A stretch of DNA of 64,000 bases from a bacterium (lineage in GTDB: Bacteria; Hydrothermota; Tepidihabitantia; SM23-42; JAOAFX01), in contig JBNAVN010000002.1 of NCBI GenBank assembly GCA_049700315.1, forward strand, positions 22,002 through 86,001, written 5' to 3'. Positions 13,354 to 57,603 of the stretch are shown one piece after another. The notes below the pieces were generated by a model, which worked only from the letters and a program-made list of their open reading frames with translations, had not been told where the DNA came from and did no database searches. Position 1 is the first letter of the stretch, and every line of letters starts with the position of its first letter. The translations under genes were made by a program, and so were the position numbers.

Positions 13354-13359
13354 TAATTA

Positions 13360-14124: not shown

Positions 14125-15077
14125 AAGTTTTGATCACAGGCATTTCTGGCTTTGCCGGCAGCCATCTTGCTGATTACCTCTTATCACTTAACAATGTTGA
14201 AGTTTTTGGAACAATCAAATGGCGTTCAAAAATAGACAACATTGAACACATTCTTGATAAGATCAAATTCTATGAATGTGATATCAAAGATGCTTCAGCA
14301 ATAAAGTATGTTATCAATGAGATTAGACCTGACTTTATTTTCCATCTTGCTGCTCAGAGCTATGTTCCTTTTTCCTGGCGTGCTCCTTCTGAGACTTTGA
14401 CAACAAATATCCTGGGCGAGTTGAATCTATTTGAAGCAGTTCGGGAATTAAAACTTGATACAATGATCCACATTGCGGGTTCAAGCGAAGAATACGGACT
14501 TGTATACCCTGAAGAAATACCGATAAGAGAAACAAATCCCTTAAGGCCATTGAGTCCTTATGCAGTAAGCAAGGTTGCTCAGGACCTGCTTGGTTATCAA
14601 TACTACAAAAGCTATGCTCTAAAGATCATAAGAACAAGGGCATTTAACCATACTGGTCCAAGGCGCGGTGAAGTCTTTGTTACTTCCAACTTTGCCCGAC
14701 AGATAATTGAAATTGAAAAGAAAAAAAGAGAACCGGTTATCTATGTAGGCAATCTTGAGGCAGTAAGGGATTTCCTTGATGTGCGTGATGTTGCAAAGGC
14801 ATACTTTCTCGCTTTGAAAAAAGGTACGCCAGGAGAAGTCTACAATATTGCTTCAGGCAAAGGAGTAAAAATAAAAGAGTTACTTAATACAATGCTCAAA
14901 ATGACCAATTGCAATCTGAAGGTCATTCAAGATCCAGCCCGTATGAGACCATCGGATGTTGAGTTGCTCGTTGGCTCAAACGAAAAATTCAAGTCCACCA
15001 CTGGCTGGCAACCGGAAATTCCATTTGAAAAAACAATTAAGGATCTTCTTGATTACTGGCGGTCAAGAATCTCATGA
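14121..15077 (+). CDS. SDR-family NAD-dependent epimerase/dehydratase (GDP-sugar dehydratase/reductase-like)
   Basis: Rossmann motif ITGISGFAGSHL; catalytic YAVSK; 318 aa. Confidence 0.75.
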   Translation: MKVLITGISGFAGSHLADYLLSLNNVEVFGTIKWRSKIDNIEHILDKIKFYECDIKDASAIKYVINEIRPDFIFHLAAQSYVPFSWRAPSETLTTNILGELNLFEAVRELKLDTMIHIAGSSEEYGLVYPEEIPIRETNPLRPLSPYAVSKVAQDLLGYQYYKSYALKIIRTRAFNHTGPRRGEVFVTSNFARQIIEIEKKKREPVIYVGNLEAVRDFLDVRDVAKAYFLALKKGTPGEVYNIASGKGVKIKELLNTMLKMTNCNLKVIQDPARMRPSDVELLVGSNEKFKSTTGWQPEIPFEKTIKDLLDYWRSRIS

Positions 15078-16015
15078 ACCGAATTCTGATTACTGGTGCT
15101 GAAGGCTTTGTTGGTTCCCACCTGATAAAAGTCTTGAAAGAATCTCTTGATATCATTATTCCTACCTGTTTCCCTCTACTGAAACCTAAACGAGGGAAAT
15201 TTGTCAGTATGGACATAATGAATATTGAAATGGTGCGTGAGGTTTTTAAGTCCCATAATCCTGATATCATATTTCATCTTGCTGCTGTTAGTTCGGTTGC
15301 CAAATCATTCCTTGATCGTCCATTCACTTACAATACAAATATTATGGGCACGATCAATCTTCTTGAAGCGGCGCAGTCTCTTAATAAAAAAACCAAATTC
15401 ATCTTTGTTTCTACATGTGAAGTTTATGGTGGCGGTGATAATCTAAAAGAAGATGCAAAAATCACCCTGAAAAATCCTTACGCAGCAAGCAAGTATGCAT
15501 CCGAGCTAATTTGCAGTGAATACGGTAATTCAGGTATAGACATAGTCATCTTAAGGCCATTTAATCATACTGGACCCGGACAATCAGATGACTTCGTTCT
15601 TCCTTCAATTGCCCGGCAGGTGGCTGAGATTGAACGTGGCAAGAAGATACCGCTAATTGAAGTAGGTAATATTGAAATAAGAAGAGAATTCATAAATGTT
15701 ATGGATGTGGTGCTGGCTTACAAACTTGCCATAGAAAAATGCCCTAACGGAGAGATCTATAATATCTCTTCAGGCAAAGGCCATACCCTTGCTGAAGCCA
15801 TTGACCTTTTCAAGAAACTGGCAAAAGTCAATTTTGATATCAAAGTTGATCCGTCCCGCCTGCGTAAGACTGACATTGCAGTGCTTATAGGCAACGGCGA
15901 AAAATTTTCAAAATTGACCGGTTGGGTCCAAAAAATCTCATTTGAAAAGACAATTGAAGACCTGTTAAATTACTGGCGTGCAAAAACACAAAATTCACGC
16001 AGACAAGAACATTGA
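15074..16015 (+). CDS. SDR-family NAD-dependent epimerase/dehydratase (tandem paralog)
   Basis: ITGAEGFVGSHL; YAASK. C-terminal EKTIEDLLNYWRAK parallels EKTIKDLLDYWRSR of the upstream gene. Confidence 0.75.
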   Translation: MNRILITGAEGFVGSHLIKVLKESLDIIIPTCFPLLKPKRGKFVSMDIMNIEMVREVFKSHNPDIIFHLAAVSSVAKSFLDRPFTYNTNIMGTINLLEAAQSLNKKTKFIFVSTCEVYGGGDNLKEDAKITLKNPYAASKYASELICSEYGNSGIDIVILRPFNHTGPGQSDDFVLPSIARQVAEIERGKKIPLIEVGNIEIRREFINVMDVVLAYKLAIEKCPNGEIYNISSGKGHTLAEAIDLFKKLAKVNFDIKVDPSRLRKTDIAVLIGNGEKFSKLTGWVQKISFEKTIEDLLNYWRAKTQNSRRQEH

Positions 16016-16060
16016 AAAACAAAGATATGAATTTTCCCGTTTTTGTTCCTTATTTAAATT

Positions 16061-17152
16061 ATGAATATTTTGGTAATTAATTGGCAGGATTGGCAGAATC
16101 CCTATGCAGGCGGCGCCGAGGTGTATTTTTATGAGATATTTGTGCGTTTGCTTAAAAAGGGCCATAAAATTATGCTTCTTTGCAGTAAAGGACCCGGGCA
16201 GAGCCGTTACGAGATTCTTGAAGGCTTTGAAATTTTTCGTATTGGTAAGAGATTCAATTTCAATTTCTATATACCGTTTGCTCTTCGCTCAATACTACGA
16301 CATAGAAAGGTTGATATCATCATTGACGACCAGAATAAAATTCCATTCTATTCCCCGCTTTATTCGCGAAAAAAGAATTTCATAATGATTATGCATCTTT
16401 TTGGAAAAACAATCTACAAAGAAACCAATTTTGCCTTTGCAAGTTATGTATTCGGAACCGAGCGGCTTATTCCAATGATGTATCCTCACTCCCATTTCAT
16501 TGCCATTTCTCATAGCACGGCTGAAGATTTGAAAAACATGGGCGTGAAAAAAAGAATATCTGTTGTTTATTGTGGAATTCCTGAAGTCACCAATGATTCT
16601 CCTGTTGTGCGCCAGAAAAACCTTGTTGCTTATGTCGGTCGTGTTAAAAAATACAAGTCCATTGATCACCTGATTTATGCCGTAGATAGATTAAGAAAAG
16701 AAATTTCTGTTGAACTGACTGTCGTTGGTGATGGCGATGCCCGGCAGGAATTGGAAAAACTCAGCAAAAAACTGAATTTGCCGGTAGATTTTAGAGGATT
16801 TGTAGATGAAAGAGAAAAATATGAGGTGTATTATCGGGCCAAGATCATTGTTCAACCTTCTATCAAGGAAGGCTGGGGGTTGACAGCAGTTGAAGCTCAG
16901 GCCTGCGGGACACCTGTGGTTTGTGCCGATTCACCGGGGTTAAAAGAAACCCTTATTGATGGAAAGACTGGTTATTTATATGAATATGGGAATATCAACC
17001 AACTGTGTAGCAGAATCAAAGATTTGCTTCTTGATGACAATAAATGGCTTGATTTCTCAAACGCTGCGCGCAGGTGGACAAAAAAATTTTCCTGGGATAA
17101 TTCAGCGGAAACAATGGAAAAGATCCTTTTGGAAAAAAGCAGTACTGTATGA
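16061..17152 (+). CDS. glycosyltransferase family 4 (GT-B)
   Basis: EGWGLTAVEAQACGTPVV...GLKETLIDGKTG is the GT4 EX7E-type motif. Confidence 0.8.
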   Translation: MNILVINWQDWQNPYAGGAEVYFYEIFVRLLKKGHKIMLLCSKGPGQSRYEILEGFEIFRIGKRFNFNFYIPFALRSILRHRKVDIIIDDQNKIPFYSPLYSRKKNFIMIMHLFGKTIYKETNFAFASYVFGTERLIPMMYPHSHFIAISHSTAEDLKNMGVKKRISVVYCGIPEVTNDSPVVRQKNLVAYVGRVKKYKSIDHLIYAVDRLRKEISVELTVVGDGDARQELEKLSKKLNLPVDFRGFVDEREKYEVYYRAKIIVQPSIKEGWGLTAVEAQACGTPVVCADSPGLKETLIDGKTGYLYEYGNINQLCSRIKDLLLDDNKWLDFSNAARRWTKKFSWDNSAETMEKILLEKSSTV

Positions 17153-19407
17153 ACTTTGCAGTAATTCTATTCTCCATAATTGTTAATGAACCCTGTTTAG
17201 TCTTTTTTTCTCTACCCGATAGTCTTACTGATTTTTCCATTGCTCTCCAGAATTACGAAAAAGGCAATTACCGAACCGCTCAGGTCCTCCTGGAGAATTT
17301 TGTTAATGAAAATCCTGATGATACTTTGGTTCCCGAAGCAACCCATTATTTGCTGAAAATCTATGACCAGAAAAACGATTTCACAAAATTCTTTGCTACC
17401 GCAAATCGCTATTTAGAATCTTTCAAATACGATAGAAGAAGAGGTGATATTTTCAATCTACTTTTGAATAAACTTGTGAATACCAATTCATTTTTTCTTG
17501 CTTTTGCATATCTCAGAAAATATGACTATTTGCCTGTTAATGACGCGCTTATCAGTCTCATAGTTTTGAACCTTGGAACCCAGGGTTTTTGCCTTGACGA
17601 ACTGCTACAACTATATCCTGAATACGATTCATTGAAGATACTAAAAGCCCTTTCTCTTGAAAATCTGAAAGACCGACACGAAATATTCAAAACGATTAAA
17701 AACATCAAAGGAAAATTGTACATAATTGAAAATTATCTCGCCTCGGAAGACACCGTCAGCGCCTTTAATGAATACCGAACTGTGAAACTTGAAGAAATCC
17801 CTGCAGATATGCTCTATCAATGGGCACAGATATCACTCGTCCTCAACCCGTCTGACTTAGCAAACATAATTTCTCATATGCAAATATACCCATTCATGAA
17901 AGAAAAGATAAAAATTCTGAATATTTTTGTCACGAATGAATTACCCGATGATATTAATATTCAGGATAAAAAGGACATAGATGTCATTCAGAAGTTCATC
18001 AGGACCCACCACATTGATTCAAACCGGCTATTTCTGCCCGAAAGCATCAATATTGATTCAATTCTTACTGATACTACGAAGGCCGAAGACATTCTTGTAT
18101 TTTTCAGGGAAAATTCACCGAGAAATTTCTGCCTGGATTCAATATACTGCACATTATTATTGAAAAAACAAAGATACTCTGATGCTTATGATGTCATCAA
18201 AGAATATCTTGAATATCCTGAAACAAAACATTATGCCCGGATGGTCAGGGCACTAAAGTGTTTTGGAGAAAAAGACTACAAATCGGCGCTTAATGATTTT
18301 ATCTTCATTTCAAACAAAGACCAATTCTCTAAAGTGGTATATGCAGAATGCCTTCAATATACAAATCATGATCCATCAACGATCTACGAAGAATTGCTTG
18401 GTAGTTGCAGTGATTCACTGCTCCGCCAGAGAATCCTGAGCAACTACATCAGCCATAAATTCCAGAATTATGAATACTCGGCAATAGCAAAACTGGATCA
18501 AAAGGAATTCAGCGGTGATTCGCACCTGGTCAAACTCTATCTTTTGAGTCTTGTCCATAACGGCAAGAGAGAATATGCAAAAACACAATATGTAAAATTG
18601 AATGGTCAACTTGACCTTGATTTCTACATTGCTGAAGTACAATATCTCATTGAAAGTAAAAACTGGAAAAGAGCCAACTTTATCCTGGATTCATTACTGA
18701 ATATCCCGGCATATAAAAATAATGAAATCCTGAATTATAATGCCTGCCTGGTTCCTTTTCGCAGTGAAGACTACACACTTGCTGAAACTCGCCTTGCAAA
18801 GTTTTGCAAAAAATTCAAGAGTAGTAAATACTACTATCAAGCATTATTTAAATTGGGTACACTAAAATATTTAAGACAGGAATTTGATTCTGCCGCATAT
18901 TACTATGGTCTTGCCTCAAACGATAGTTCGTTATATATAGAAGCCACTCAGAACCAGCTGCTTGCCTGCAAAAAAGCAGAAAAATGGCAGGATGTGATAC
19001 AGATTGGGAAAAAACTTGCTGATATTAGTTCTGATTCAATCAAAGCAGAATTCCATTTTGAAATTGGCTATGCCTTTTTAAGACGTGGTATGGTCGACAA
19101 CGCTATTGTACATCTAAAAATGGCTACAGCGTTGAACTCACTCGTTGATTACCACTACTGGCTCGGTGAGGCATATCTAACAAAAGGTGATTTTGCAAGG
19201 GCACTGTATCAATACGAAAAGATTGTCAACAACTTCAAGAAAGATGAGATGTGGTATCCTACCGCCTTTTTTAAAATCGGGTTGAGTCTGGAAATGCTCA
19301 ATGAAATTCAAGAAGCAAAGAAAATATACACCACCCTCCTTAAAGAGCGGGGCGCGGCTGATGTCTGGGGTAGCGAAGCCAAAAAAAGACTGGAGTTGCT
19401 AAGATGA
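17149..19407 (+). CDS. large TPR-repeat protein
   Basis: 752 aa with multiple TPR-like helical repeats (e.g. WLGEAYLTKGDFARALYQYEKIV); N-terminal hydrophobic segment. Confidence 0.55.
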   Translation: MNFAVILFSIIVNEPCLVFFSLPDSLTDFSIALQNYEKGNYRTAQVLLENFVNENPDDTLVPEATHYLLKIYDQKNDFTKFFATANRYLESFKYDRRRGDIFNLLLNKLVNTNSFFLAFAYLRKYDYLPVNDALISLIVLNLGTQGFCLDELLQLYPEYDSLKILKALSLENLKDRHEIFKTIKNIKGKLYIIENYLASEDTVSAFNEYRTVKLEEIPADMLYQWAQISLVLNPSDLANIISHMQIYPFMKEKIKILNIFVTNELPDDINIQDKKDIDVIQKFIRTHHIDSNRLFLPESINIDSILTDTTKAEDILVFFRENSPRNFCLDSIYCTLLLKKQRYSDAYDVIKEYLEYPETKHYARMVRALKCFGEKDYKSALNDFIFISNKDQFSKVVYAECLQYTNHDPSTIYEELLGSCSDSLLRQRILSNYISHKFQNYEYSAIAKLDQKEFSGDSHLVKLYLLSLVHNGKREYAKTQYVKLNGQLDLDFYIAEVQYLIESKNWKRANFILDSLLNIPAYKNNEILNYNACLVPFRSEDYTLAETRLAKFCKKFKSSKYYYQALFKLGTLKYLRQEFDSAAYYYGLASNDSSLYIEATQNQLLACKKAEKWQDVIQIGKKLADISSDSIKAEFHFEIGYAFLRRGMVDNAIVHLKMATALNSLVDYHYWLGEAYLTKGDFARALYQYEKIVNNFKKDEMWYPTAFFKIGLSLEMLNEIQEAKKIYTTLLKERGAADVWGSEAKKRLELLR

Positions 19408-19928
19408 AACGCTGCCGGATCTTCAACATTAACTCACTACCCTGCCTACTGCTTATCATCAACTACTTACTGCTTGCTGTTTACTACTTACTAATTTCTG
19501 GTTGCTGTGGTTATTCTACTCGCTCTTTACTTCCCGGCTATATCAGAAAGGTTCATATAAAAATATTTGAGAATCAGACTTACAAACCAGGTCTCAATGA
19601 AATAGCAACCGAGACTACAATTGAGGCATTCCGCAATAACTCATCGCTTAAGATCGTCAGTGAGGAACAGGCAGACATTGTAGTAAATGGTAAAGTCACA
19701 GGTTTTTCTAAAGATCCTCATGTGTATACGGGTGCCCTGGATGTGACACAATACAAGATAACAGTCAAACTATCAGTAACCTGCCTTGATCAGGTAAAGA
19801 ATACAATCTTCTGGCAGGGTGATATTTCAGACTGGGCAATATATACGACTGACGAAGATGAAAGCATTAAGGAAGCAATCAAACGGGCTGCTGAAAGATT
19901 GGTGACTACGATATTGACAAATTGGTAA
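19404..19928 (+). CDS. lipoprotein, possibly LptE-like
   Basis: Lipobox-like LISGCCG; size 174 aa; position between glycan-synthesis genes. Similarity to LptE is weak. Confidence 0.35.
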   Translation: MKRCRIFNINSLPCLLLIINYLLLAVYYLLISGCCGYSTRSLLPGYIRKVHIKIFENQTYKPGLNEIATETTIEAFRNNSSLKIVSEEQADIVVNGKVTGFSKDPHVYTGALDVTQYKITVKLSVTCLDQVKNTIFWQGDISDWAIYTTDEDESIKEAIKRAAERLVTTILTNW

Positions 19929-19972
19929 GTATCGGCTTGACACAATTATTTTAATATCTATAATTATCTGAA

Positions 19973-22018
19973 ATGGAACCGGAGATTTCAATTGTTATAG
20001 TCAACTATAATGTTAGACATTTTGTAGAACAGTGCCTCATGGCGATTGAGCGCGCCAGGCACAATCTCGCCCTTGAAATCATTGTCGTTGATAACGCTTC
20101 GGTTGATGGTAGCCAGGCAATGATTAAAAGAAAATTCCCCCAAGTTTTGCTTCTTGAAAATCATAAGAATCTTGGTTTTGCAAAAGCAAATAATCAAGCA
20201 TTAAAGATCGCCCGGGGTAAATATGTATTGATCCTCAATCCAGATACTTTGATTCAGGAAGATACGCTCGTCGCATTGAAGGACTTCCTTGATAAAAATC
20301 AAGATGTTAGTGCAGTCGGATGCAAGTTGATCAACCCGGATGGCTCTTTCCAGATTGCAAGCAGGCGTAGTATTCCAACACCCTGGGTCGCATTTACAAA
20401 GATCACTGGGTTAAGCAGGATTTTTCCAAGGAGCAAAATCTTTGCACGTTATAATCTTACCTATATCTCACCTGATATTGGGTGTGAAGTAGAAGTGCTT
20501 TCTGGTTCATTGATGATGGTTCGAAAGCAGGTCCTGACTGATGTTGGCTATTTTGATGAAGATTATTTTCTATACGGAGAAGATATTGATCTGTGTTACA
20601 AGATAAAGAAGGCTGGTGGGAAAATTTACTACACTCCTGTTACTAAGGCTATCCATTACAAAGGAGAAAGTACAAAAAAAGGAGAATTTTCATATATTAC
20701 AAATTTTTATTCGTCAATGTTGATATTCATTGATAAACATTTCAAAAATTATTATTCGGTGTTTGTAAAATTTATTCTGACTGTCGGCATATATTTGCGG
20801 GCTTGCCTTGCTTATCTTTCTTCTCTCGTGAAAAACATCGCAACACCGCTCTTTGATTTTTTTCTAATCATTTTGAGCATCTATCTGGCAATTAAACTAT
20901 GGCTCCCCCATTATCAATTAGCGCGATTCCAGATGATCATTCCTGTGTATACCTTTGTTTGGTTCATTAGCATTTATCTTGCCGGCGCCTACCATCCAGG
21001 GGGGAAATACCACCTGAAACAGTTGATTGGTGGAGCCACAGTTGGTTTTCTGTTAAACTCTACTTTCACCTATTTCTTTAAGCAGTTTGCCTATTCGCGG
21101 GTTGTAGTATTAATTGCCTTCTTGCTTATTATACTGGTTCTGGGTATCTGGCGTGTTGCCTACCGCTGGATTGGTCCGCATTCAGTCAAACATCCAATTT
21201 CCAAATTAAGGCGTACAATCATTGTTGGCGCTGGCAAAGAGGGTACAAGGATCCTGAAGAAACTGAGAACCAGACCTGATATACCCTACGAAGTTTGTGG
21301 TTTTGTTGATTTTGACGAGAAGAATATCGGTAAAGAAATTGATGGTATTGAGGTTCTTTCAACCATTGAGAACATAAAAGATGTCATAAAAGTACAGAAG
21401 CTTGATGATGTGATATTCTCAAGTGACCGTTTGAGCAATAAACAGATCCTTGAAACAATTTCGTACGCAAGTGGTACTGGTGTGAACTTCCGTATCGTTC
21501 CCCACGAATTAGAATACATCATAGCAAAATCTTCTGTTGACGAAATCGATAGCCTGCCATTATTGGACTTAATAAGCACGTACGACCCAATAGATCTTAT
21601 GATAAAAAGACTCTTTGATATCTTTTCATCCCTGATTATTATCGTAGCTTCCTCGCCATTAATTCTTATCAATTTTATTGCCGGAGCAAAAATTATCAGC
21701 AAGAAAATCCTTATTGAAAATGGCAGAGAAGAAAATATCAGTTTATTTGAAGGCGGTATCTCATTTTTGAGGAACCTGCCATTATTTTTCTCTGTATTAA
21801 AAGGTATTATAAGCCTGGTTGGTGCGGAAATAAGTGAACCTGAAAAAAACAAACATAAACCTGCTTACAAGCCAGGATTAACCGGTTTTGTTCAGATCAA
21901 GGAACGTGAGAAGAAAAAACAATTAAGTTCTCAGGAAAAAGATTATTATAATCTCTACTATTTGAGAAATCGTTCTTTGATTACTGACCTGCAAATTTTG
22001 ATTAAATCCCTGATTTAG
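19973..22018 (+). CDS. fusion: GT2 glycosyltransferase plus WbaP-like polyprenyl-phosphate sugar transferase architecture (C-terminal PGT domain apparently degenerate)
   Basis: N-terminus SIVIVNYN...VVDNASVDGS (GT2). Several TM segments. Rossmann-like IIVGAGKEGTRIL. C-terminal LIKRLFDIFSSLIIIVASSPLIL ... KPGLTGFVQI ... YYLRNRSLITDLQILIKSL (bacterial sugar transferase). Confidence 0.7.
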   Translation: MEPEISIVIVNYNVRHFVEQCLMAIERARHNLALEIIVVDNASVDGSQAMIKRKFPQVLLLENHKNLGFAKANNQALKIARGKYVLILNPDTLIQEDTLVALKDFLDKNQDVSAVGCKLINPDGSFQIASRRSIPTPWVAFTKITGLSRIFPRSKIFARYNLTYISPDIGCEVEVLSGSLMMVRKQVLTDVGYFDEDYFLYGEDIDLCYKIKKAGGKIYYTPVTKAIHYKGESTKKGEFSYITNFYSSMLIFIDKHFKNYYSVFVKFILTVGIYLRACLAYLSSLVKNIATPLFDFFLIILSIYLAIKLWLPHYQLARFQMIIPVYTFVWFISIYLAGAYHPGGKYHLKQLIGGATVGFLLNSTFTYFFKQFAYSRVVVLIAFLLIILVLGIWRVAYRWIGPHSVKHPISKLRRTIIVGAGKEGTRILKKLRTRPDIPYEVCGFVDFDEKNIGKEIDGIEVLSTIENIKDVIKVQKLDDVIFSSDRLSNKQILETISYASGTGVNFRIVPHELEYIIAKSSVDEIDSLPLLDLISTYDPIDLMIKRLFDIFSSLIIIVASSPLILINFIAGAKIISKKILIENGREENISLFEGGISFLRNLPLFFSVLKGIISLVGAEISEPEKNKHKPAYKPGLTGFVQIKEREKKKQLSSQEKDYYNLYYLRNRSLITDLQILIKSLI

Positions 22019-24045: not shown

Positions 24046-24429
24046 TTATCTATGTTCAGAACACATTACAGTTCCATTTTCAGAATTATATATATAAGGA
24101 GCGCCGGTTACCGGACAGAATGTTTCCTGAAATTGAATGTCTGACAAATCCTCAAGTCTCTCTGGATATTTGCTGTTCTCTACATAGTACAGTTGTATCG
24201 CTCCTTCAATCTTTCTTATTTGCGTTTGACACCTCAAGATATTAGCCCGCTCAGGTGGTGCAACTGCAGATTGAGATTCCCTGGTACCCCGGGTATAAAT
24301 AGTACCCGCTTTATAGATTAGAATGCCCACAATGACAAGTCCAAGTAGTAATCCAATAAGTGCGTAGGTTCTCAAGAGCTCTCCAAATTGTCGGATTATA
24401 AACAATTTGCGCACAATGTCAATCCTCAA
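24046..24429 (-). CDS. type II secretion/type IV pilin-like pseudopilin (GspG-like C-terminal domain)
   Basis: N-terminal hydrophobic helix; [28 protein letters not shown] resembles the T2SS-G domain. Non-canonical prepilin motif. Confidence 0.45.
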
Positions 24430-25391: not shown

Positions 25392-26156
25392 TTATATGCC
25401 GATAATGCCTCGGTGAGATGATTTGATAAAATCAATTATTTCCTGAGAATGCTTTGGATGAAGTTCACTTTTCAAAAGGTTAATAATTTCCTTCATATTT
25501 TTGTTTGTTTTATAAATCAACCGGAATATCCGTTTCATCTCTTCTATCTCTTCATTATTGAAACCATAACGTAAAAGCCCTTGTCTATTGATACCATATA
25601 TCCTTGCCCGATTTCCACGGGCAAGGAAATAGGGCGGAAGGTCTTTATTCAAATATGATTTGGCACCAAGCATTGCATACTTCCCCACCCGGCAGAATTG
25701 ATGGATTCCAACAAGCCCGCCAATATAGGCAAAATCATCGATCTCAACATACCCAGCAATCTGGGCGCCGCTTGCAATCACGGTATTATTTCCAATTTTC
25801 ACATTGTGGGCGATATGGACATAGGTCATAATGAAATTGTTATTGCCGATTATCGTTCTTTTGTTTTTACCTGTTGCCCTTGAAATTGTAGCATATTCTC
25901 TGATTATATTATTATCACCGATAATACACTCTGAATATTCGCCTTTGAAATGATAATCCTGCGGATCTGTTCCCAACTGAACACCGGAATAAATTTTATT
26001 ATTCCTGCCAATTATCGTCCCTTTTTTTATGACAACAAAATTACCAATTCCTGTTCCCTCCCCAATCTCCACACCTTTTTCAATTATTGAATATTTGCCA
26101 ATCTTAACTGATTTATGTATCTTTGCCTTTTTGCTGATCATTGATTTTTCTATCAT
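25392..26156 (-). CDS. lpxA: acyl-ACP--UDP-N-acetylglucosamine O-acyltransferase
   Basis: Left-handed beta-helix hexapeptide repeats. Closely parallels E. coli LpxA (IAHNVKIGNNTVIASGAQIAGYVEIDDFAYIGGLVGIHQFCRVG...PPYFLARGN). Confidence 0.9.
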   Translation of the reverse strand: MIEKSMISKKAKIHKSVKIGKYSIIEKGVEIGEGTGIGNFVVIKKGTIIGRNNKIYSGVQLGTDPQDYHFKGEYSECIIGDNNIIREYATISRATGKNKRTIIGNNNFIMTYVHIAHNVKIGNNTVIASGAQIAGYVEIDDFAYIGGLVGIHQFCRVGKYAMLGAKSYLNKDLPPYFLARGNRARIYGINRQGLLRYGFNNEEIEEMKRIFRLIYKTNKNMKEIINLLKSELHPKHSQEIIDFIKSSHRGIIGI

Positions 26157-26210: not shown

Positions 26211-26627
26211 TTACTTCCTCTTTATCCCGGCCAGAATTACTGCTTCACATACTATTTGGTTATCTACCTTTGCAATCCCAGAAATCTTTACAATCGTTCC
26301 GCGTTCCTGCAGTAATTCTACCTCCATAACAAGTGTATCACCGGGTTTAACAATCTTTCTGAAGCGCGCCTTATCAATCCCCATAAATAATGGAATCGCA
26401 CCAGGATATTTTCTCAATAACATCACCCCACCGGTCTGGGCAATCGCCTCAACAATCAAAACCCCGGGCATTATCGGCTCAGCAGGGAAGTGCCCTTGAA
26501 AGAAGAACTCATCTGGATGAATTTTTCGCTGGGCAACAATTTTTCTGTCGCTGATTTCCAGGACTTCATCCACAAACAAAAAAGGCTCACGATGGGGTAA
26601 AATTTTTTTTATTTCTTCTGAATCCAT
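26211..26627 (-). CDS. fabZ: 3-hydroxyacyl-ACP dehydratase
   Basis: ILPHREPFLFVDEV...GHFP..PIMPGVLIVEAIAQ hot-dog fold motifs; 138 aa. Confidence 0.9.
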   Translation of the reverse strand: MDSEEIKKILPHREPFLFVDEVLEISDRKIVAQRKIHPDEFFFQGHFPAEPIMPGVLIVEAIAQTGGVMLLRKYPGAIPLFMGIDKARFRKIVKPGDTLVMEVELLQERGTIVKISGIAKVDNQIVCEAVILAGIKRK

Positions 26628-26651: not shown

Positions 26652-27491
26652 TCAGGGATGAACAGAATGTCTTCTTGCCCACTCTCTTAAATTGATGACT
26701 TCTGTACGTTGACAACCACAATCCCCGATCTTACAATATCCCCGAGGAAAGCCATGAAAATCAGAACCACCGGTTATCAACAAACCGTGCTTCATCGCAA
26801 TCTCATAAAAATCATCTTCCTGTTTATGCGTGTGTTCAGGATGCCATACTTCAATACCCTGGGCACCATCACTGATCAATTTATAGATCATTCCATTATC
26901 AGCACCAATCATTCCCGGATGAGCAATGATTGGCACACCACCGCATTCTCTAATTTTTTGCATAACTTTTTTGGGACTGGTTTCTTTTTTAGGTTCATAG
27001 TAAGGACAATGGTAACCAAGATACCGAGAAAAAGCCTCATTACGCGAGCGCACATATCCACATTCCAATAATGCCTCAGCAATATGGGGACGTCCCATAG
27101 AACTATTTTGAGCAATCCTTTTCACCTGTGAAAAATCTACCCTTACACCATCCTGGGCAAGATTTTCAACAATCTTTTTTGCCCGCGTTAATCTATATTC
27201 TTTGAATTCTTCAAGATAGTCCAGAAAATCCCGACAATGATGGTCAATATAATAACCAAGGATATGAATGTCACGATTTCCAACATTGGCACTTAACTCA
27301 ACTGCAGGAATAATCTCAATGTTGTCTTTACTGCTGACGATTGCCTCATCAATACCTGCTACCGAATCGTGGTCAGTAATGGCAATGACCGATACTCCGG
27401 ATTTCTTGGCAATATCAACTATTTCCTGAGGTCTGAAAACACCGTCTGAATACAATGTATGGATATGTAAATCTGCGTAATAATCAGTCAA
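26652..27491 (-). CDS. PHP-domain phosphoesterase
   Basis: DLHIHTLYSDG N-terminal PHP motif; further His/Asp metal ligands (HPEHTH, GGSDFHG). Confidence 0.75.
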   Translation of the reverse strand: MTDYYADLHIHTLYSDGVFRPQEIVDIAKKSGVSVIAITDHDSVAGIDEAIVSSKDNIEIIPAVELSANVGNRDIHILGYYIDHHCRDFLDYLEEFKEYRLTRAKKIVENLAQDGVRVDFSQVKRIAQNSSMGRPHIAEALLECGYVRSRNEAFSRYLGYHCPYYEPKKETSPKKVMQKIRECGGVPIIAHPGMIGADNGMIYKLISDGAQGIEVWHPEHTHKQEDDFYEIAMKHGLLITGGSDFHGFPRGYCKIGDCGCQRTEVINLREWARRHSVHP

Positions 27492-27519: not shown

Positions 27520-28332
27520 TTAGGCTAAACCGAGATCGCGACACACATCAATGACAACCTTTTCATCAACCATTTCCTTTTTCAAAAGAAAACCTTCAAG
27601 TAATGCGTTATCACATATTGCATTTATCATACGAGGAATTCCCTTTGAGAATTGAAAGATATTTTTCATAGCACCGCCGGTAAATAATGGACGAGAACAT
27701 CCAGCCACCCGGAGACGATGAACAACATAATTCTGAGTAGTCTCCTGATCAAGCGCTTCAAGAACACATCTAACAGCAATCCTCTGGTACAATGCTGGAT
27801 CAAGTTTCAGATAGTCTTCCATCTCAGGCAGCCCAAAAAGAATGAAGTTCAGAAGTTTGCCCCGCTCTGATTCAAGATTCAAAAGCCCTCTGATTTCTTC
27901 CATCAAATCCTTTCTCTGCAACATATTCGCTTCATCAATCAGAATAACAACCTTCTTGTTCTTGCCTGTAAGATCGAGTAACCTGTGATAAACTGCGGTA
28001 ATGATCTCAATCTTATTTTCGGATTCAACCGGTGTCTCCAGCATCAAGGAAATTTTTTTAAGAAACCATAGAGATGTAATCTCAGAATGTATAATAACCA
28101 GAAGTGTTGCCTCAACACTATTATTGATCAATTGATCAAGTAATCGCCGTGAAAGGGTTGTTTTCCCGGTGCCAATATCACCGATCAGCAACGCCAGACC
28201 TTTTTCTGTTTCCACCGCATGTGTAAGTTTTGCCAGCGCCTTGGCATGCTGGGGTGAATTATAATAGAACTTCTCATCAGTGGTGAAACTGAATGGATGT
28301 TCTTTCAATTTATAAAAACTTTCATATCCCAT
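27520..28332 (-). CDS. ExeA/GspA/MshM-like AAA ATPase (copy 1)
   Basis: MGYESFYKLKEHPF...LLIGDIGTGKTTL (Walker A), ILIDEAN (Walker B). Overall colinear with the ExeA N-terminal ATPase; no peptidoglycan-binding extension. Confidence 0.75.
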   Translation of the reverse strand: MGYESFYKLKEHPFSFTTDEKFYYNSPQHAKALAKLTHAVETEKGLALLIGDIGTGKTTLSRRLLDQLINNSVEATLLVIIHSEITSLWFLKKISLMLETPVESENKIEIITAVYHRLLDLTGKNKKVVILIDEANMLQRKDLMEEIRGLLNLESERGKLLNFILFGLPEMEDYLKLDPALYQRIAVRCVLEALDQETTQNYVVHRLRVAGCSRPLFTGGAMKNIFQFSKGIPRMINAICDNALLEGFLLKKEMVDEKVVIDVCRDLGLA

Positions 28333-28348
28333 AGCTTCTCACCATTCC

Positions 28349-30226
28349 CTACAAATATGTTACCTTTGATTTCTTAGGTTTTGCTACTTCTTCCGGTTGG
28401 ATTTTCTTGACTTCTTTCGGTGGCGGAGTGGGTGTAACCTCGGTCCGTTTTCTCAATTCCTCTGTGAGTTTGTCTTTCAATTCATTTATTTTCTTTAAAA
28501 GGTCAGGAACACTCTTATCAATATTTGCTGCATTGATATATGATTTAATTGCCATTTTTAAATTCTTCTGCATTTCATAGGCATTTCCTAAGAGAAAATG
28601 CAGACCAAAATATTCCCCGGCCGGGCGTTTGGGTATTGCCAATCCTTCACTCAATACCTTAATTGCCTCATCTATTTTGCCCTTATCAAGCAAACAAGAA
28701 CCAATCATCTCAAAGGACTTTAATTTGAGGTTATCATCCTTTGCCGCAATTTCAAATTCTTCAATTGCCTCCTGATGCAATCCCATTCCTTTATAAGCAA
28801 CGCCCAGGTCATAATGAGAACGATAGTCGCCTTCGCCGATAGATTCAAACACTTCCTTGCGAAACTGCGATATCAAGTCATTGATATTTTGAATACCTGA
28901 CGAGACTGGCTCGCCTTCAATTTCAGTACGCAATACCTGCCCTAAATCAATGAATTCTCTTGCCTTTGTCTCTTCTTCAATCATACTCTGGGCAATGGCG
29001 TTTTGCGGTTCCATTTCCAGAACCTTTCTCAATACTGATTGCGCTTCGGTTCTTGCTTCACGTCTATTTAGAGTTTCCGCAAGATCCAGCATAAAATCTA
29101 TCTGCAGTTTCTTGTCATTTTTAAGTTTAGCGATTTCTATGAGACGTTGCCGGGACTTTAAGTCAAGAGGTCTTAAATCTGCTACTTTCTTATACAAATC
29201 CAGCGCCTGATCATATTTCTTTTCTTTAAATGCCATCCCTGCAGCATCGCGGAAACAACTGATTGCTTCTTCTTCTTCGCCTAAATTCAGGTAAATCTCA
29301 GCCAATTCCTGTGTCCTGACAATTTCGGAAACTTCTTCCTCAGCAGGCTTTTCTTCAATAACTTCAACCTCTGGTTCTGCTTCCTTTGTCTCCACTTCAT
29401 CTTTGAGTAATTCAGCCACCTCAGGAGATACAAAATCCTCTAACGAAAGTTGCCCTTTAACCGGTTCAGGCTCGTGAATTGCTTCTTTTGATTCTTTGAC
29501 TTCCTCTTCTATTTCCATCCGGGGAATTTCAGTTTCTTTTGGCGAAACCTCAATTTCAACTTCTTTGGGAGGTTCGACCTTGACTTCTGGTGTTACTACT
29601 TCCTCAACTACCGGAGCCTCCACTATTGGAGGTTTTTCAACCTCAGGTGTAGTAACAACCTGGGCAGTAACAGTCTCTTTCAACTCCCTCTGTTTTGTTT
29701 CAATTTTCTCTGCCTCTTTTCGCAGGTCAACACTTTGTTCTTTTTTTCCAATCTTTTCGTAGATTGCCGAGATCATTTGAATTACCTTGTAGTTGTTGGG
29801 GACCAAATCTTTTATTGCTTCATAGGTTTTTAAAGCTGCATCAACCTCATTATTCTTCATCTTTCTGTCAGCATACTCAAGATAGTAGTTTGCCGCTTCA
29901 ACAAACTGCCCGAGTTCTTTGTGTAATTCACCCAACAAATTGTAGATTTCTGTCCTTTCCTTATCAAGCCTTAATATTTTTTTGCACAGTGCAATCGCAT
30001 TTGGATAGTATGTTTCTTCAGCAAGGGCATAAGCACCTTTTTCATAAATATCAATTGCTTCTTTTTGACGATTTACTTTGATGTACAGGTCACCCAATTT
30101 GTTAAAGAGTGAACCCTCTTTAGGAAATTCCTGCACCGCCTTCTCAAGTTCAACAATTGCCTTATTGACATCACCTTTTGCTTCTAATTCTGCAACTGTT
30201 CTTTTTATCGTACCTAAATCAGCCAT
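28349..30226 (-). CDS. TPR-repeat protein with central acidic Glu/Pro/Val/Lys-rich low-complexity region (MshN-like partner, copy 1)
   Basis: N- and C-terminal TPR repeats. Central VVTTPEVEKPPIVEAPVVEEVVTPEVKVEPPKEVEIEV... Immediately follows the ATPase with a 1-nt overlap. Confidence 0.6.
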   Translation of the reverse strand: MADLGTIKRTVAELEAKGDVNKAIVELEKAVQEFPKEGSLFNKLGDLYIKVNRQKEAIDIYEKGAYALAEETYYPNAIALCKKILRLDKERTEIYNLLGELHKELGQFVEAANYYLEYADRKMKNNEVDAALKTYEAIKDLVPNNYKVIQMISAIYEKIGKKEQSVDLRKEAEKIETKQRELKETVTAQVVTTPEVEKPPIVEAPVVEEVVTPEVKVEPPKEVEIEVSPKETEIPRMEIEEEVKESKEAIHEPEPVKGQLSLEDFVSPEVAELLKDEVETKEAEPEVEVIEEKPAEEEVSEIVRTQELAEIYLNLGEEEEAISCFRDAAGMAFKEKKYDQALDLYKKVADLRPLDLKSRQRLIEIAKLKNDKKLQIDFMLDLAETLNRREARTEAQSVLRKVLEMEPQNAIAQSMIEEETKAREFIDLGQVLRTEIEGEPVSSGIQNINDLISQFRKEVFESIGEGDYRSHYDLGVAYKGMGLHQEAIEEFEIAAKDDNLKLKSFEMIGSCLLDKGKIDEAIKVLSEGLAIPKRPAGEYFGLHFLLGNAYEMQKNLKMAIKSYINAANIDKSVPDLLKKINELKDKLTEELRKRTEVTPTPPPKEVKKIQPEEVAKPKKSKVTYL

Positions 30227-31047
30227 TATTCAAATTTTAGTCCCAAATTACTAATAACCCTCTCAATAATTGTCTCATCAATGGTCTGTTTGCGTTGAAC
30301 ATAGCCTTCCAGAAGTGCATTATCGCAAATTATGTTTACAAGTCGGGGACGGCCATCAGAATACCGACAGATGAGTTCTTGTGCCATGGGTGCAAAAATC
30401 TGTCGCTGGGTACCAGCAACTGTGAGTCTATGTGATATATACGCCCTTATTGTCTCAGTACCCAACGGTTTCAACTTAACCTTTATGGCAATTCTTTGAT
30501 ACAATGCCCGATTCATCATAAGAAATGACTCTAACTCAGGCAATCCGCTCAGAACGAATGAAATCAATCTCGTATCAGCGATCTCTAAGTTCAACAAACC
30601 TCTTATCTCTTCAAGAATTTCGGGGCTCTTGAGTTTATTCGCCTCATCAATAATGATTATAGTTCTTTCATTTCTTCTATAAATTTCCCGCAATCTGCTT
30701 GAAATGCGAGATACTATTTCAGTCGTAGATGTCCCCAAATCACTCAAACCGATCAAATTTGCGATTTTGGAAAATAACCAGCCGGTGGGAAATTCCGAAT
30801 GGGTTAGAACAATGAGACCGGCTTGATATTTACCGAGGCTCTGAAGTTCCGTAAGCAATTTTCTTACAAGCATTGTTTTGCCAGTCCCAATATCTCCTAC
30901 CAGTATTGCAAGGCCCCGGGTGCCCCGTGCTGCATGCAACAGATATTCCTTGGCAAGCGCATGCTGCGGAGAATTGAAATAAAATTTAGGATCCGGGAGA
31001 TTTGCGAATGGTTCAAATTTTAGTTGATAAAATTCTTGATAACCCAC
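30226..31047 (-). CDS. ExeA/GspA/MshM-like AAA ATPase (copy 2)
   Basis: MGYQEFYQLKFEPF...ILVGDIGTGKTML, IIIDEAN; paralog of 27520-28332. Confidence 0.75.
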   Translation of the reverse strand: MGYQEFYQLKFEPFANLPDPKFYFNSPQHALAKEYLLHAARGTRGLAILVGDIGTGKTMLVRKLLTELQSLGKYQAGLIVLTHSEFPTGWLFSKIANLIGLSDLGTSTTEIVSRISSRLREIYRRNERTIIIIDEANKLKSPEILEEIRGLLNLEIADTRLISFVLSGLPELESFLMMNRALYQRIAIKVKLKPLGTETIRAYISHRLTVAGTQRQIFAPMAQELICRYSDGRPRLVNIICDNALLEGYVQRKQTIDETIIERVISNLGLKFE

Positions 31048-31060
31048 TTAGCCTCCTGTT

Positions 31061-32977
31061 TTATAGAAAAGTAATATTATCCGTCTTTTCTTCAACATCA
31101 ATTTTTCCTTCTTCAGAAAATCCTTCTTTTACCGGTATTCTTTCTTCAATCAATGGTTCTTCAACAACTGGTTTTACTAACTCTTCTTTCGGTTTTTCAA
31201 TTATCACTTCAGGTTCTTGATAAAAAGCTTCTTCCACTTTTTCTGATGTAGCAATTGGCTCTACCTCCGGTGTTTCTTCCTTGATCTCCACGGGTTCAAT
31301 GGCCGCTGGTTTTTCTTCAGGAACCGGTGATGCAGTCTGCGTTTTTGAAATTTCCATTTTACCACCGAGCAATGTATAGATTTCTCTGATGTCCCGGTAG
31401 TCTGGGTTGATCGCCAGAATATGCTCTATTTCCCTTAAGGCATTTTCAAAATCGCCAACACCTTCATAGCCTGAAGCAAGTAGATATCTCAATTCGGTCT
31501 TCTGATCCTCCGGTATCTCTTCAAGCAATATTATCGGTCCGATCACCTTTATGGCTTCATTATACCTGCCTAATTTGATAAGCGATTCCCCAACTATTTC
31601 TAATGAAGCCGGCCAGAACTCTTTTTTGTCCTTTTCACCCTGCAGATAAGAAAGTGCAATTTCAAATAATCCTGAATCAACCGCCATCCTTGCCAAAGGA
31701 ATTTTCTTTTTCGTATCATCTATCTCCCAGGTAATGTTTGTACGAAAATCATCAAATTGTTTTGCCACTTCAAAATTCCTCGGAGTAGGACCAACCTCTG
31801 ATTCCTTAAGCAAAAATTCAATATCCGCAATCTGACCTTCAAGCGGAGGTATCTCTGCTGGCTTCGCTTCAGGAACCTGTTCAACCGGTGGTTCTTCAGC
31901 GACTTTCTCTTCAGATTTGACTTCTTCTTCAGGCTTTTTTTCAATTTCAGAGGGAAATGCAAATCCCTCAATCTCTTTGCTCAGGTCCTTCAATATTTCA
32001 AGGTCACTTTGAATCGCTGTAATTGTTTCATCCGCTTGCTGAAGAGACGGTGGTACCTCAGATTTTATTTCTTCAGTCTTTTCCGTAGAAACTGGGGCGG
32101 GTTCCTCAGGCTCTTTTGTTGGTTTTATCTCAATCTTTTCCTCTACCTTTGGTCTTGCACCCGGCCTTAGTTCATTGAGTTTCTTCAATGCCTCACTATT
32201 ATTGGGGTCAATCTCAAGGATACGATTGAGAACATTGACTGCATCATCAACCTTGCCTTCACGAATTAAATCGTCTGATGCCTTTTTGAATTCAATAATT
32301 GCCTCATCCCGGGAGCCAATTTCATATAATAAATTGCCAAGTTCAATACGACTCCTCGGATCCAGCTCCTCACCACCATCAGTTTGAGGTAGTAACTTCC
32401 GTATCTCATTAAGAATTGTCTCATCATTTATTTCCGCTGCCAAACCCCTTAATTTCACCAATTCATCCTGTGCCTCGCGGTTACGATTTACAGAAAAAAG
32501 TAATTTTGCAAGGGATAAACGCAGTGGTAAATTCTTGGGCTGAAATTCAGCCACCTTGCGTAGTGCTGAGACAAAAAGGGTTTCATCTTTTTTCTCCAGT
32601 GCCCGGGAAGCAAACTCAATTAACCTCTTAAGCGCTTCATTTCGTAGACCATAGAAGTGATATAAGTCAACAAGGCGGAACAATACACTATCATTCATTT
32701 CGTCAATCATCAAAATCTTTTCCAGACAGATAACCGCCTCTGCATACTGCCCGTTGTGCGTATAGTTTTCAAAAGCGTGTTCATAACGAGAAATTGCCTC
32801 ATTGGCTTTTCCCAATTTTATTGCCAAATCCCCGCATAACTCCAGTACTCGGGCACGATTTGGATTTTCATCAAGGGCACGCCTTAAAATAATCTGCGCC
32901 TTTTCATATTTGCCTTCTCTTATATACTGCTGACCTTTTTCCAAGATTTCTGTTTCCATAGTTAACCTACCTTGCAA
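31061..32977 (-). CDS. TPR-repeat protein with central acidic Glu/Pro-rich region (MshN-like partner, copy 2)
   Basis: TPR repeats at both ends; central EEPAPVSTEKTEEIKSEVPP...EEKVAEEPPVEQVPEAKPAEIPP; paralog of 28349-30226. Confidence 0.6.
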   Translation of the reverse strand: MQGRLTMETEILEKGQQYIREGKYEKAQIILRRALDENPNRARVLELCGDLAIKLGKANEAISRYEHAFENYTHNGQYAEAVICLEKILMIDEMNDSVLFRLVDLYHFYGLRNEALKRLIEFASRALEKKDETLFVSALRKVAEFQPKNLPLRLSLAKLLFSVNRNREAQDELVKLRGLAAEINDETILNEIRKLLPQTDGGEELDPRSRIELGNLLYEIGSRDEAIIEFKKASDDLIREGKVDDAVNVLNRILEIDPNNSEALKKLNELRPGARPKVEEKIEIKPTKEPEEPAPVSTEKTEEIKSEVPPSLQQADETITAIQSDLEILKDLSKEIEGFAFPSEIEKKPEEEVKSEEKVAEEPPVEQVPEAKPAEIPPLEGQIADIEFLLKESEVGPTPRNFEVAKQFDDFRTNITWEIDDTKKKIPLARMAVDSGLFEIALSYLQGEKDKKEFWPASLEIVGESLIKLGRYNEAIKVIGPIILLEEIPEDQKTELRYLLASGYEGVGDFENALREIEHILAINPDYRDIREIYTLLGGKMEISKTQTASPVPEEKPAAIEPVEIKEETPEVEPIATSEKVEEAFYQEPEVIIEKPKEELVKPVVEEPLIEERIPVKEGFSEEGKIDVEEKTDNITFL

Positions 32978-33040
32978 ATTATAATTGATTTTGCGAATTT
33001 GTCAATACACAACATCGCCCTGGCGAGATTGATTACCATA

Positions 33041-57577: not shown

Positions 57578-57603
57578 TATGAAACAAAACTTCCTCAAAT
57601 AAT

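Follow-up and report, generated by a model that had tools for sequence, protein, structure and literature searches.

Two probable pairs of an SgmX-family TPR scaffold and an ExeA-family ATPase encoded side by side upstream of fabZ and lpxA

What is encoded by four closely spaced genes at positions 27520-32977 of a 64,000-nucleotide stretch of bacterial DNA (assembly GCA_049700315.1, contig JBNAVN010000002.1, positions 22,002 to 86,001; this whole stretch is referred to as the window), and why does a pair composed of an ATPase gene and a gene for a tetratricopeptide repeat (TPR) protein occur there twice? An initial annotation, made from the sequence alone, had proposed a tandem duplication of an ExeA/MshM-like ATPase together with a TPR protein with an acidic core, and had likened the pairing to MshM and MshN of MSHA pili. 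The region probably consists of two paralogous cassettes, each made of a gene for a TPR scaffold of the SgmX family followed by a gene for an ExeA-family ATPase of about 270 amino acids (aa) with core plus lid, which would form insulated scaffold-plus-switch pairs. The identity and homology of both pairs, as given below, can be stated with high confidence, and the docking of the scaffold tail on the ATPase as a switch is put forward tentatively. In order of transcription, the four genes are:

31061-32977, minus strand: TPR638, open reading frame (ORF) as listed, 638 aa, first in transcription order
30226-31047, minus strand: ATPase273, ORF of 273 aa with a GTG start, second in transcription order
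28349-30226, minus strand: TPR625, ORF of 625 aa, third in transcription order
27520-28332, minus strand: ATPase270, ORF of 270 aa, fourth in transcription order

The arrangement of four genes on the minus strand was thus located correctly by the initial annotation, as were the near-identical N-termini of the two ATPases that it quoted. The genes that it listed as ATPase-TPR are present, but they are transcribed in the order TPR then ATPase. They are tightly packed, with 13 nucleotides (nt) between TPR638 and ATPase273, a 1-nt overlap between ATPase273 and TPR625, where the start codon of the latter overlaps the stop codon of the former (TAATG), and 16 nt between TPR625 and ATPase270. The GC content is uniform over the region.

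Judging from sequence, the closest characterised relative of this arrangement is the sgmX operon of Myxococcus, MshM/MshN being set apart by gene order and context and not by a comparison of sequences. The best NCBIfam match of TPR625 is the SgmX model NF052243 (E-value 1e-28, residues 7-176 on model positions 6-176), which is also matched by the N-terminus of TPR638 (E 9e-10); scores on the same model are 303 bits for the partner TPR protein of a Nitrospirae locus and 906 bits for that of a Myxococcaceae locus. TPR625 aligns in register with intact Myxococcota SgmX over two segments, residues 9-193 on 8-193 (54 bits) and residues 427-590 on 748-917 (42 bits). For TPR638, residues 10-173 align on 5-168 (40 bits) and the C-terminus aligns weakly. 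Three other TPR proteins of the window, used as controls, score at most 25 bits or nothing against SgmX. A homolog search with residues 1-185 of TPR625 returned 14 short fragments and no SgmX; because this search was uninformative, the link to SgmX was made through NCBIfam and through the ATPase. SgmX itself is composed of a pilus-activating domain (TPR1-8), then a proline-rich region, TPR9-11, which bind FrzS, and TPR12-14, which bind MglA-GTP (PMC9811614).

The Myxococcota loci were reached through a homolog search seeded with a high-GC relative, itself from the search for representatives related to the Nitrospirae homolog P0110, which yielded ATPases from a Myxococcaceae genome and from Archangium. 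Loci L088 and L089 display the layout pilP-pilQ-...-efp-accB-accC-TPR(982/985 aa)-ATPase-TamB-Omp85 (TamA), as does a third Myxococcota genome (L092), and the gene order of all three matches that of the published MXAN_5766-5763 operon (PMC3983030, PMC7668184). There, sgmX (MXAN_5766) is the first of four genes in a putative operon, TamB-like and TamA-like genes follow MXAN_5765, and for MXAN_5765 the only description is that of a putative Sec system ATPase (PMC3983030, PMC7668184). P0354, encoded between SgmX and TamB in a Myxococcaceae genome, shares 48% identity with ATPase270 across 267 residues (E 2e-92) and 41% with ATPase273. STRING reports the co-occurrence of MXAN_5763-5765 with SgmX (PMC11580455), and the supplements of the 2020 SgmX papers hold no annotation of MXAN_5765 and no primers for it, only strain and plasmid names. 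The SgmX gene of the Myxococcaceae metagenome-assembled genome (MAG), at 6948-9896 of L088, appears to contain a frameshift close to the 3' terminus: the model matches residues 1-807 only, and the RKVGY[LV] tail seen in L089 and L092 is missing.

The pair can be followed well beyond the Myxococcota. Genes were called in 80 genome loci and labelled by comparison with the window proteins, and in every one of these loci with enough sequence a TPR gene is located directly upstream of the ATPase gene on the same strand. Most loci from WOR-3, Stahlbacteria and TA06 exhibit the layout HutI-FTCD-TPR-ATPase-TPR-ATPase-PHP-fabZ-lpxA, in which, as upstream of TPR638 in the window, FTCD is a formiminotransferase-cyclodeaminase gene and HutI an imidazolonepropionase-like amidohydrolase gene. 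The closest genome contig, JBDRWH010000002.1, belongs to a candidate division WOR-3 bacterium and is 98% identical. In Cloacimonadota the layout is HutI-TPR(~425)-ATPase-TPR(~660)-ATPase-PHP. A single pair can be found in a few WOR-3 genomes, and in Nitrospirota, NC10 and FCPU426 there is likewise one pair, the TPR protein of which is long (775-1123 aa). As indicated by these comparisons, the TPR625/ATPase270 pair is the apparent ortholog of the single pair of Nitrospirota, NC10, FCPU426 and Myxococcota, where it corresponds to sgmX (MXAN_5766) and MXAN_5765.

The duplication of the whole module, as proposed by the initial annotation, is real; the recent event that its wording suggested is not what is found, identity and synteny indicating an ancient one. 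Along their whole length, the two ATPases have 46% of their residues in common (E 4e-87), and their genes are about 53% identical at the DNA level. A significant alignment of TPR625 with TPR638 covers only the N-terminal 150 residues or so (23%, E 4e-10). Repeat searches detected no long direct repeat and no meaningful tandem repeat in the DNA. Both a recent duplication and a collapsed or artefactual assembly repeat, an origin that the initial annotation had wished to see excluded, are ruled out by the DNA identity of about 53% and the absence of long repeats. The duplication predates the divergence of WOR-3, Stahlbacteria, TA06 and Cloacimonadota. With regard to which copy is the original, the WOR-3 ATPases of the ATPase270 type share 53-54% identity with the single-copy proteins from Nitrospirota, NC10 and FCPU426 and 48% with the Myxococcaceae ATPase, but only 45% with the ATPase273 type, and the ATPase273-type proteins are only 43-46% identical among themselves across WOR-3, Cloacimonadota and UBA-type WOR-3. 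Because of this pattern in the identity matrix, ATPase270 is regarded as the conserved ortholog of the single-copy ATPases and ATPase273 as a faster-evolving paralog class. The TPR638/ATPase273 pair is then a duplicate of long standing that has evolved faster and is restricted to WOR-3, Stahlbacteria, TA06 and Cloacimonadota. The identity matrix and synteny were used in place of a neighbor-joining tree, the rooting of which was unreliable, its single distant outgroup having joined inside the ATPase270 clade. In itself, the duplication is ordinary.

Scaffold and ATPase also appear to be matched to each other. The ends of all TPR proteins preceding an ATPase in the collected loci were surveyed, and a terminal [ILV]-x-[YF]-[LIVM]-COOH motif was found in 115 of the 120 partner TPR proteins, as against 12 of 1008 other ORFs of at least 100 aa from the same loci. 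In the window, the tails are:

28352-28375, minus strand: C-terminal tail of TPR625, KKSKVTYL-COOH, class A, basic
31064-31087, minus strand: C-terminal tail of TPR638, KTDNITFL-COOH, class B

Class A, with the consensus K-K-x-[KR]-[IV]-[TS]-Y-[LIM], is displayed by the partners of ATPase270-type and single-copy ATPases, e.g., RKDRVSYL in Nitrospirota, KKKISFI in NC10 and RKVGYL or RKVGYV in Myxococcota SgmX. Class B is found in the partners of ATPase273-type proteins and reads G-E-N-I-[AS]-F-L in WOR-3 and R-I-[LF]-Y-I in Cloacimonadota; the motif is borne by 44 of 45 such partners, and all 44 have I at position -4 and [FY] at position -2. Over tail residues -14 to -4, the net charge is opposite to that of the next downstream ATPase, so that a basic class A tail pairs with an acidic ATPase of the 270 type and an acidic class B tail with a basic ATPase of the 273 type:

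Cloacimonadota, 270 type: ATPase net charge -10.6, tail net charge +5.7
WOR-3, 270 type: ATPase net charge -4.9, tail net charge +3.5
WOR-3, 273 type: ATPase net charge +3.5, tail net charge -2.5

The correlation of tail with ATPase charge (Spearman -0.79 for 106 pairs, -0.96 for 7 lineage-by-paralog group means) rests on few independent lineages, the pairwise figure being inflated by relatedness and the group figure consisting of 7 points. The charge pattern fits an arrangement in which the cognate partner of each scaffold is the next ATPase and not the preceding one. What appears to be new here is the common C-terminal tail on the scaffolds, SgmX included; neither this motif nor the charge matching nor the conservation of the pair across phyla turned up in the SgmX and ExeA literature searched.

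The remainder of the scaffolds is more variable in its make-up. Glu/Pro/Val-rich spacers, which had been indicated in both TPR proteins from the outset, were located between TPR blocks at about residues 175-300 of TPR625 (nt ~29327-29704, low complexity) and at about residues 265-380 of TPR638 (nt ~31838-32185, acidic and Pro-rich), the latter protein also having an acidic C-terminal region. The net charges of the two TPR proteins are -33 and -51. In UBA-type WOR-3/'Bacteroidales' MAGs (L058, L064, L067, L072, L086), the first scaffold is only about 265 aa long and has no Pfam match, and it keeps a tail of the N-I-H-F-(L) type. The retention of the tail by these reduced scaffolds suggests that it is the scaffold part under strongest constraint.

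As for the ATPases, both match AAA_22 in Pfam (E 3e-19 and 2e-20), and the initial annotation was right to regard them as ExeA-type proteins lacking the peptidoglycan-binding extension of ExeA: ATPase270 is 37% identical (E 9e-48) and ATPase273 33% identical, over aa 3-248, to the ATPase domain of ExeA from Aeromonas caviae, and neither has a transmembrane segment or a peptidoglycan-binding domain (no match to PF21327 or PF01471). The label ExeA family (COG3267/AAA_22) is thus right for the ATPase domain. The A. caviae comparator is an ORF of 571 aa with AAA_22, GspA_C39-like and PG_binding_1 domains, followed by a T2SSB protein; the exeAB genes are carried by NZ_AP026896.1 (L093), a 4.94-Mb chromosome filed as a plasmid in PLSDB with 18 annotated features. 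GspA from E. coli K-12 was discarded as a comparator, being too divergent (21-25% identity over 130 aa, no NCBIfam match). All four proteins of the module are predicted to be soluble and cytoplasmic, with a maximum 19-residue hydropathy of no more than 1.45. ATPase273 has a net charge of +6 and its Walker A motif at nt 30874-30897, ATPase270 a net charge of -2 and its Walker A motif at nt 28159-28182. Walker A, Walker B, R148, N152, R184, R206 and R234 are invariant in 67 sequences of the ATPase270 class and 47 of the ATPase273 class; since the catalytic residues are invariant in both classes, both copies should be active. The identity of 48-54% across phyla, with every catalytic residue invariant, points to strong purifying selection on the ATPase. 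Between the two classes, 29 alignment columns display class-specific charge swaps.

An AlphaFold2 model of ATPase270 built from 50 homologs has a mean predicted local distance difference test score (pLDDT) of 93.8, and the predicted fold comprises an AAA+ core and a lid, without any further part. The best folds in the PDB are those of archaeal ORC2/Cdc6, MuB and TnsC, with template modelling (TM) scores of 0.64-0.74 and 14-18% identity, and the best solved relative by sequence is TnsC (E 1.5e-7). The family is very large: with the P0110 query, 25,986 cluster representatives were obtained at E ≤ 0.001 and 5,093 at E ≤ 1e-30. Various architectures can be found among these relatives, such as fusions with SgmX-like TPRs (P0172), with a receiver domain at the N-terminus (P0145, P0157) or with a dCache sensor (P0280), two ATPase domains in one chain (P0181), and disordered Pro-rich or acidic C-terminal tails of 100-570 aa (P0144, P0136, P0147). 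Such a spread of architectures is what one would expect of a regulatory switch module wired to different inputs.

A mode of action can be proposed on this basis, in which the ATPase would be an ATP-dependent switch or assembly factor and not an unfoldase. It would bind its own scaffold, most likely through the C-terminal tail of the latter, and its binding would control the oligomeric state, localisation or turnover of the scaffold. The TPR blocks and the disordered acidic spacer would recruit clients to a cell-envelope machine, which in Myxococcus would be the type IV pilus motor PilB at the pole. As the charges of tails and ATPases have diverged, the two pairs might function side by side without cross-talk. 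The partnership of scaffold and ATPase is favored by the natural ATPase-TPR fusion P0172. MuB and TnsC are each regulated by the docking of a peptide from the C-terminus of their partner protein, an analogy that may serve only as a lead for tail docking. It is also conceivable, although far from assured, that the SgmX-type scaffolds, a family present in at least seven phylum-level lineages, have as their ancestral partner switch, driven by ATP, the ExeA-family ATPase whose gene comes after sgmX-like genes, that the tail is read by charge-matched docking, that the core job of the pair is independent of pili, e.g., the positioning of an envelope-biogenesis machine, and that in WOR-3 the system split into two insulated pairs.

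Several observations weigh against the assignment to SgmX-type scaffold-plus-switch pairs, in addition to the limited independence of the charge figures. TPR625 scores 100 bits on NF052243, compared with a curated equivalog cut-off of 1800, and its similarity to Myxococcaceae SgmX is modest (29% identity over 179 aa); the FrzS-binding middle of SgmX (TPR9-11) has no detected counterpart in the TPR proteins of the window. Neither MglA, FrzS, PilB nor any other pilus gene was seen among the ORFs scanned in the window (about 45 of 50-odd likely genes). Deletion of mxan_5765 in M. xanthus causes no defect in S-motility, and insertions in MXAN_5765-5761 cause no developmental defect (PMC7668184, PMC11580455, bioRxiv 10.64898/2026.08.28.747804). 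Since S-motility is left intact by the deletion, the ATPase is not needed for the one known function of SgmX. Lastly, the long-tailed ATPases of L090 (9001-10839) and L091 (9001-10698), of 565-612 aa, are encoded without a TPR gene beside them, so that pairing with a TPR protein does not extend to the whole of the wider ATPase family. The ATPase gene of these two loci follows a peptidase M28 gene, with MoxR/VWA genes near and CheW genes in L091, which comes from a MAG named Deltaproteobacteria bacterium.

Downstream of the module, the string of genes continues on the same strand, and both lpxA and fabZ are found there, as the initial annotation had pointed out; a promoter upstream of the module is listed last:

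26652-27491, minus strand: gene for a PHP-domain phosphoesterase, 28 nt 3' of ATPase270
26211-26627, minus strand: fabZ, in the distal part of the TPR/ATPase gene string
25392-26156, minus strand: lpxA, at the distal end of the TPR/ATPase gene string
32978-33005, minus strand: sigma-70 consensus promoter TTGACA-16 nt-TATAAT, 12/12 match, in the 63-nt gap between FTCD and TPR638

The gaps are 28 nt between ATPase270 and PHP, 24 nt between PHP and fabZ, and 54 nt between fabZ and lpxA, and the PHP gene is probably co-transcribed with the module. The promoter at 32978-33005 is likely the start of the operon. As a promoter ending at 32978 leaves no room for the listed TTG start at 32977, the true start of TPR638 is probably the ATG at 32959, 18 nt downstream, which would give a protein of 632 aa; this ATG is preceded at 6 nt by a Shine-Dalgarno-like GGTAGG, and several TPR638 orthologs start with METE or MEVD at the equivalent position. 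Three perfect TTGACA-16-TATAAT sites lie on the minus strand within 12.5 kb (33005-32978, 24422-24395 and 24027-24000), and promoter-like sites, taken together, do not exceed the number expected from shuffling (40 vs 33 ± 6).

The genes downstream lend themselves to a different account, in which the pair is a cytoplasmic organiser of outer-membrane and lipid biogenesis, the operon partners are the functional clue and the pilus role of SgmX is a specialisation of Myxococcus. This account is unlikely, though it has the gene neighborhood on its side: in the window and in about 35 WOR-3/Stahlbacteria/TA06 loci the module lies directly upstream of PHP-fabZ-lpxA on one strand with gaps of 13-54 nt, SgmX in Myxococcota or Bd2492 in Bdellovibrio is found upstream of TamB/TamA and an acyltransferase, a CDP-alcohol phosphatidyltransferase comes next in one NC10 locus, and deletion of the Myxococcus ATPase gives no motility phenotype. 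However, no third partner is common to all phyla when all loci are queried with SMC, RadA, DUF4301, PgsA, TamB, TamA and PilQ, and TamB, TamA and PilQ have no match in 86 loci, none of these being from Myxococcota. Synteny of the PHP gene with the module extends over WOR-3, Cloacimonadota and UBA-type WOR-3, but the fabZ-lpxA linkage is kept in WOR-3, Stahlbacteria and TA06 and not in other phyla, Cloacimonadota having no fabZ-lpxA beside the module. Neighbors outside the pair are lineage-specific housekeeping genes, namely RadA and others on the opposite strand in Nitrospirota, DUF4301 and ThrRS in FCPU426, phosphoglycerate mutase and Era in UBA-type WOR-3, and elsewhere a CDP-alcohol phosphatidyltransferase or SMC; linkage of this kind can be plain inherited synteny. 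A second account, close to that of the initial annotation, would have the proteins act as accessory factors similar to MshM/MshN or ExeA/ExeB, which assist secretin or pilus assembly for type IV pili (T4P) or a type II secretion system (T2SS) encoded elsewhere. It is a good deal less probable. In its favor, the 37% identity to ExeA includes the motifs Y..F..L...PF and GIPRxIN..CD, databases name such proteins 'ExeA family' or 'general secretion pathway protein A', the TPR partners weakly match the PilW and Tgl models, and SgmX itself activates type IV pili. Yet a soluble, cytoplasmic state is predicted for each of the four proteins, and the C39-like and peptidoglycan-binding domains as well as an ExeB/T2SSB partner are absent, whereas the ExeAB mechanism needs periplasmic parts. 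Furthermore, the gene order is the opposite of mshM-mshN, no T2SS or T4P core family was detected among the scanned ORFs, as the initial annotation had also noted, and no msh, pil or gsp gene is adjacent to the pair in the window or in 80 related loci. The 'pseudopilin' that had been pointed out nearby (24046-24429, minus strand) falls short of the T2SSG cut-off, with 20.8 bits against 21; a single transmembrane helix (aa 21-39) is present, and the prepilin motif G-F/M-T-L-x-E is not. The initial interpretation is thus borne out for the module duplication and the ExeA family, and not for the links to MSHA and to a pseudopilin.

Two further accounts start from the ATPases. According to one of them, the genes would belong to a PEP-CTERM/exosortase exopolysaccharide system, with an XrtA-associated ATPase (TIGR03015) and a PrsT-like TPR protein. 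TIGR03015 is indeed the NCBIfam model that both ATPases match best, and along their whole length (E 1e-58 and 2e-55), TIGR02917 (PrsT) matches both TPR proteins weakly, and a glycosyltransferase/sugar-transferase cluster lies 6-16 kb away. Nevertheless, the scores of 198.6 and 188.4 bits amount to about 60% of the curated cut-off of 324.5, and true members encoded on plasmids of Nitratidesulfovibrio (N. vulgaris) are only about 30% identical to the window ATPases. The sgmX-adjacent ATPase of Myxococcota has a similar sub-threshold score (195 bits), which therefore reflects a family-level resemblance. In addition, PrsT is a lipoprotein whereas the window TPR proteins have no signal peptide, and no exosortase was found in the scanned ORFs; this makes the PEP-CTERM account very improbable. 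Least credible is the idea that the ATPases are mobile-element helpers of the TniB/TnsC/MuB/IstB type next to unrelated TPR genes, a classification that the initial annotation had named as a check. Among solved structures, TnsC and MuB come nearest in both sequence and fold, and some plasmid relatives with about 30% identity (H13, H18, H24) are encoded beside DDE transposases. But Pfam TniB gives 16.4 and 19.9 bits (E 5e-4 to 7e-3), below its cut-off of 22.4, no transposase, integrase or terminal repeats were found, the GC content is uniform, and ExeA and the SgmX-adjacent ATPases are much closer in terms of identity. The stable chromosomal position, syntenic across phylum-level lineages, effectively refutes it.

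Other features of the window can be mentioned more briefly. The ORF at 24046-24429 is conserved only in the closest WOR-3 relatives, and the 12/12 consensus promoter at 24422-24395 falls inside its first codons, its real start being probably further downstream. A literature search on type IV pili in WOR-3 gave nothing usable. At 52907-59948 on the plus strand, there is a cluster of polarity or chemosensory type, which comprises a Roadblock/LC7 protein with the MglB fold (52907-53314), a 634-aa protein with a DnaA-type ATPase N-terminus and a second AAA domain (53311-55215), a DUF4388/PATAN protein with TPRs (55216-56802), then CheR, CheD, CheB and a TPR protein of 292 aa; the Roadblock/LC7 and PATAN-TPR genes are 20-25 kb away from the module, and no MglA-like GTPase was seen. 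STRING also lists PATAN proteins as co-occurring with SgmX in M. xanthus (PMC11580455). Within 11357-22018, two M42 aminopeptidase paralogs in tandem (11357-13353) are followed by a glycosyltransferase cluster, to which belong a 681-aa fusion of GT2 (glycosyltransferase family 2), CoA-binding and sugar-transferase domains at 19973-22018 and a 752-aa protein with C-terminal TPRs at 17149-19407. An SMC gene is located a few kb upstream of the module in all listed Cloacimonadota loci (L003, L046, L047, L050) and in the Nitrospirae locus L005, and was not seen there in WOR-3 loci, which is probably a matter of lineage synteny.

With regard to what such a pair would mean, SgmX is a central polarity effector for type IV pili in Myxococcus, and the pair may bear on how SgmX activates the pilus. 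MXAN_5765 was set aside earlier for lack of a motility phenotype on deletion. The scaffold and ATPase pair is far older than Myxobacteria and more widespread. For WOR-3, the present assignment corrects the database label 'type II secretion protein A' given to a gene that has no secretion context. If the ATPase had no function as a partner switch, what would be left is merely a conserved pair and an ordinary old duplication. The locus is set apart by duplicated, shorter scaffolds in a different operon context, and SgmX is the only studied member of its kind.

Known systems resemble the module to different extents. MshM and MshN of the Vibrio MSHA operon are an ExeA-like ATPase and a TPR protein encoded side by side, in the order ATPase then TPR; compared with the mshIJKLMNEGF context, the window displays the reverse gene order and no msh, pil or secretin genes. 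ORC/Cdc6, MuB and TnsC/TniB have the same fold of AAA+ core plus lid and are ATP-dependent assembly switches, not unfoldases, but the window ATPases, at 14-18% identity, have neither their winged-helix or DNA-binding extension nor a mobile-element context. The XrtA/PEP-CTERM ATPases (TIGR03015) are alike in their full-length profile and differ in that no exosortase context is present in the scanned ORFs. Like the window ATPases, ExeA has Walker A and B motifs, Y..F..L...PF near its N-terminus and GxPRxIN..CD in its lid, but at 547-571 aa it contains in addition C39-like and peptidoglycan-binding domains and a membrane segment, all three of which are missing from the window proteins. Its partner, according to PMC4098917, is ExeB (T2SSB), and it acts on the secretin, whereas the partner of the window ATPases is a cytoplasmic TPR protein and no T2SSB or secretin is found among the scanned window ORFs.

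The sgmX operon differs from the window in several respects. SgmX is about 1060 aa long with 14 TPRs, compared with 625 and 638 aa for the window TPR proteins, and the Myxococcota ATPase has an additional C-terminal extension of 100-190 aa. The Myxococcota operon runs into TamB/TamA beside the pil cluster, whereas that of the window runs into PHP-fabZ-lpxA, and the pair is duplicated in the window, unlike in Myxococcota. What the two have in common is a TPR scaffold gene followed by the ATPase gene, on one strand and close together, and a Pro-rich or acidic linker between TPR blocks. In SgmX and TPR625, moreover, both the N-terminus, i.e., the start of the pilus-activating domain, and the C-terminal TPR region appear to be colinear, and both proteins close with the same [IV]-x-Y-[LV] end.

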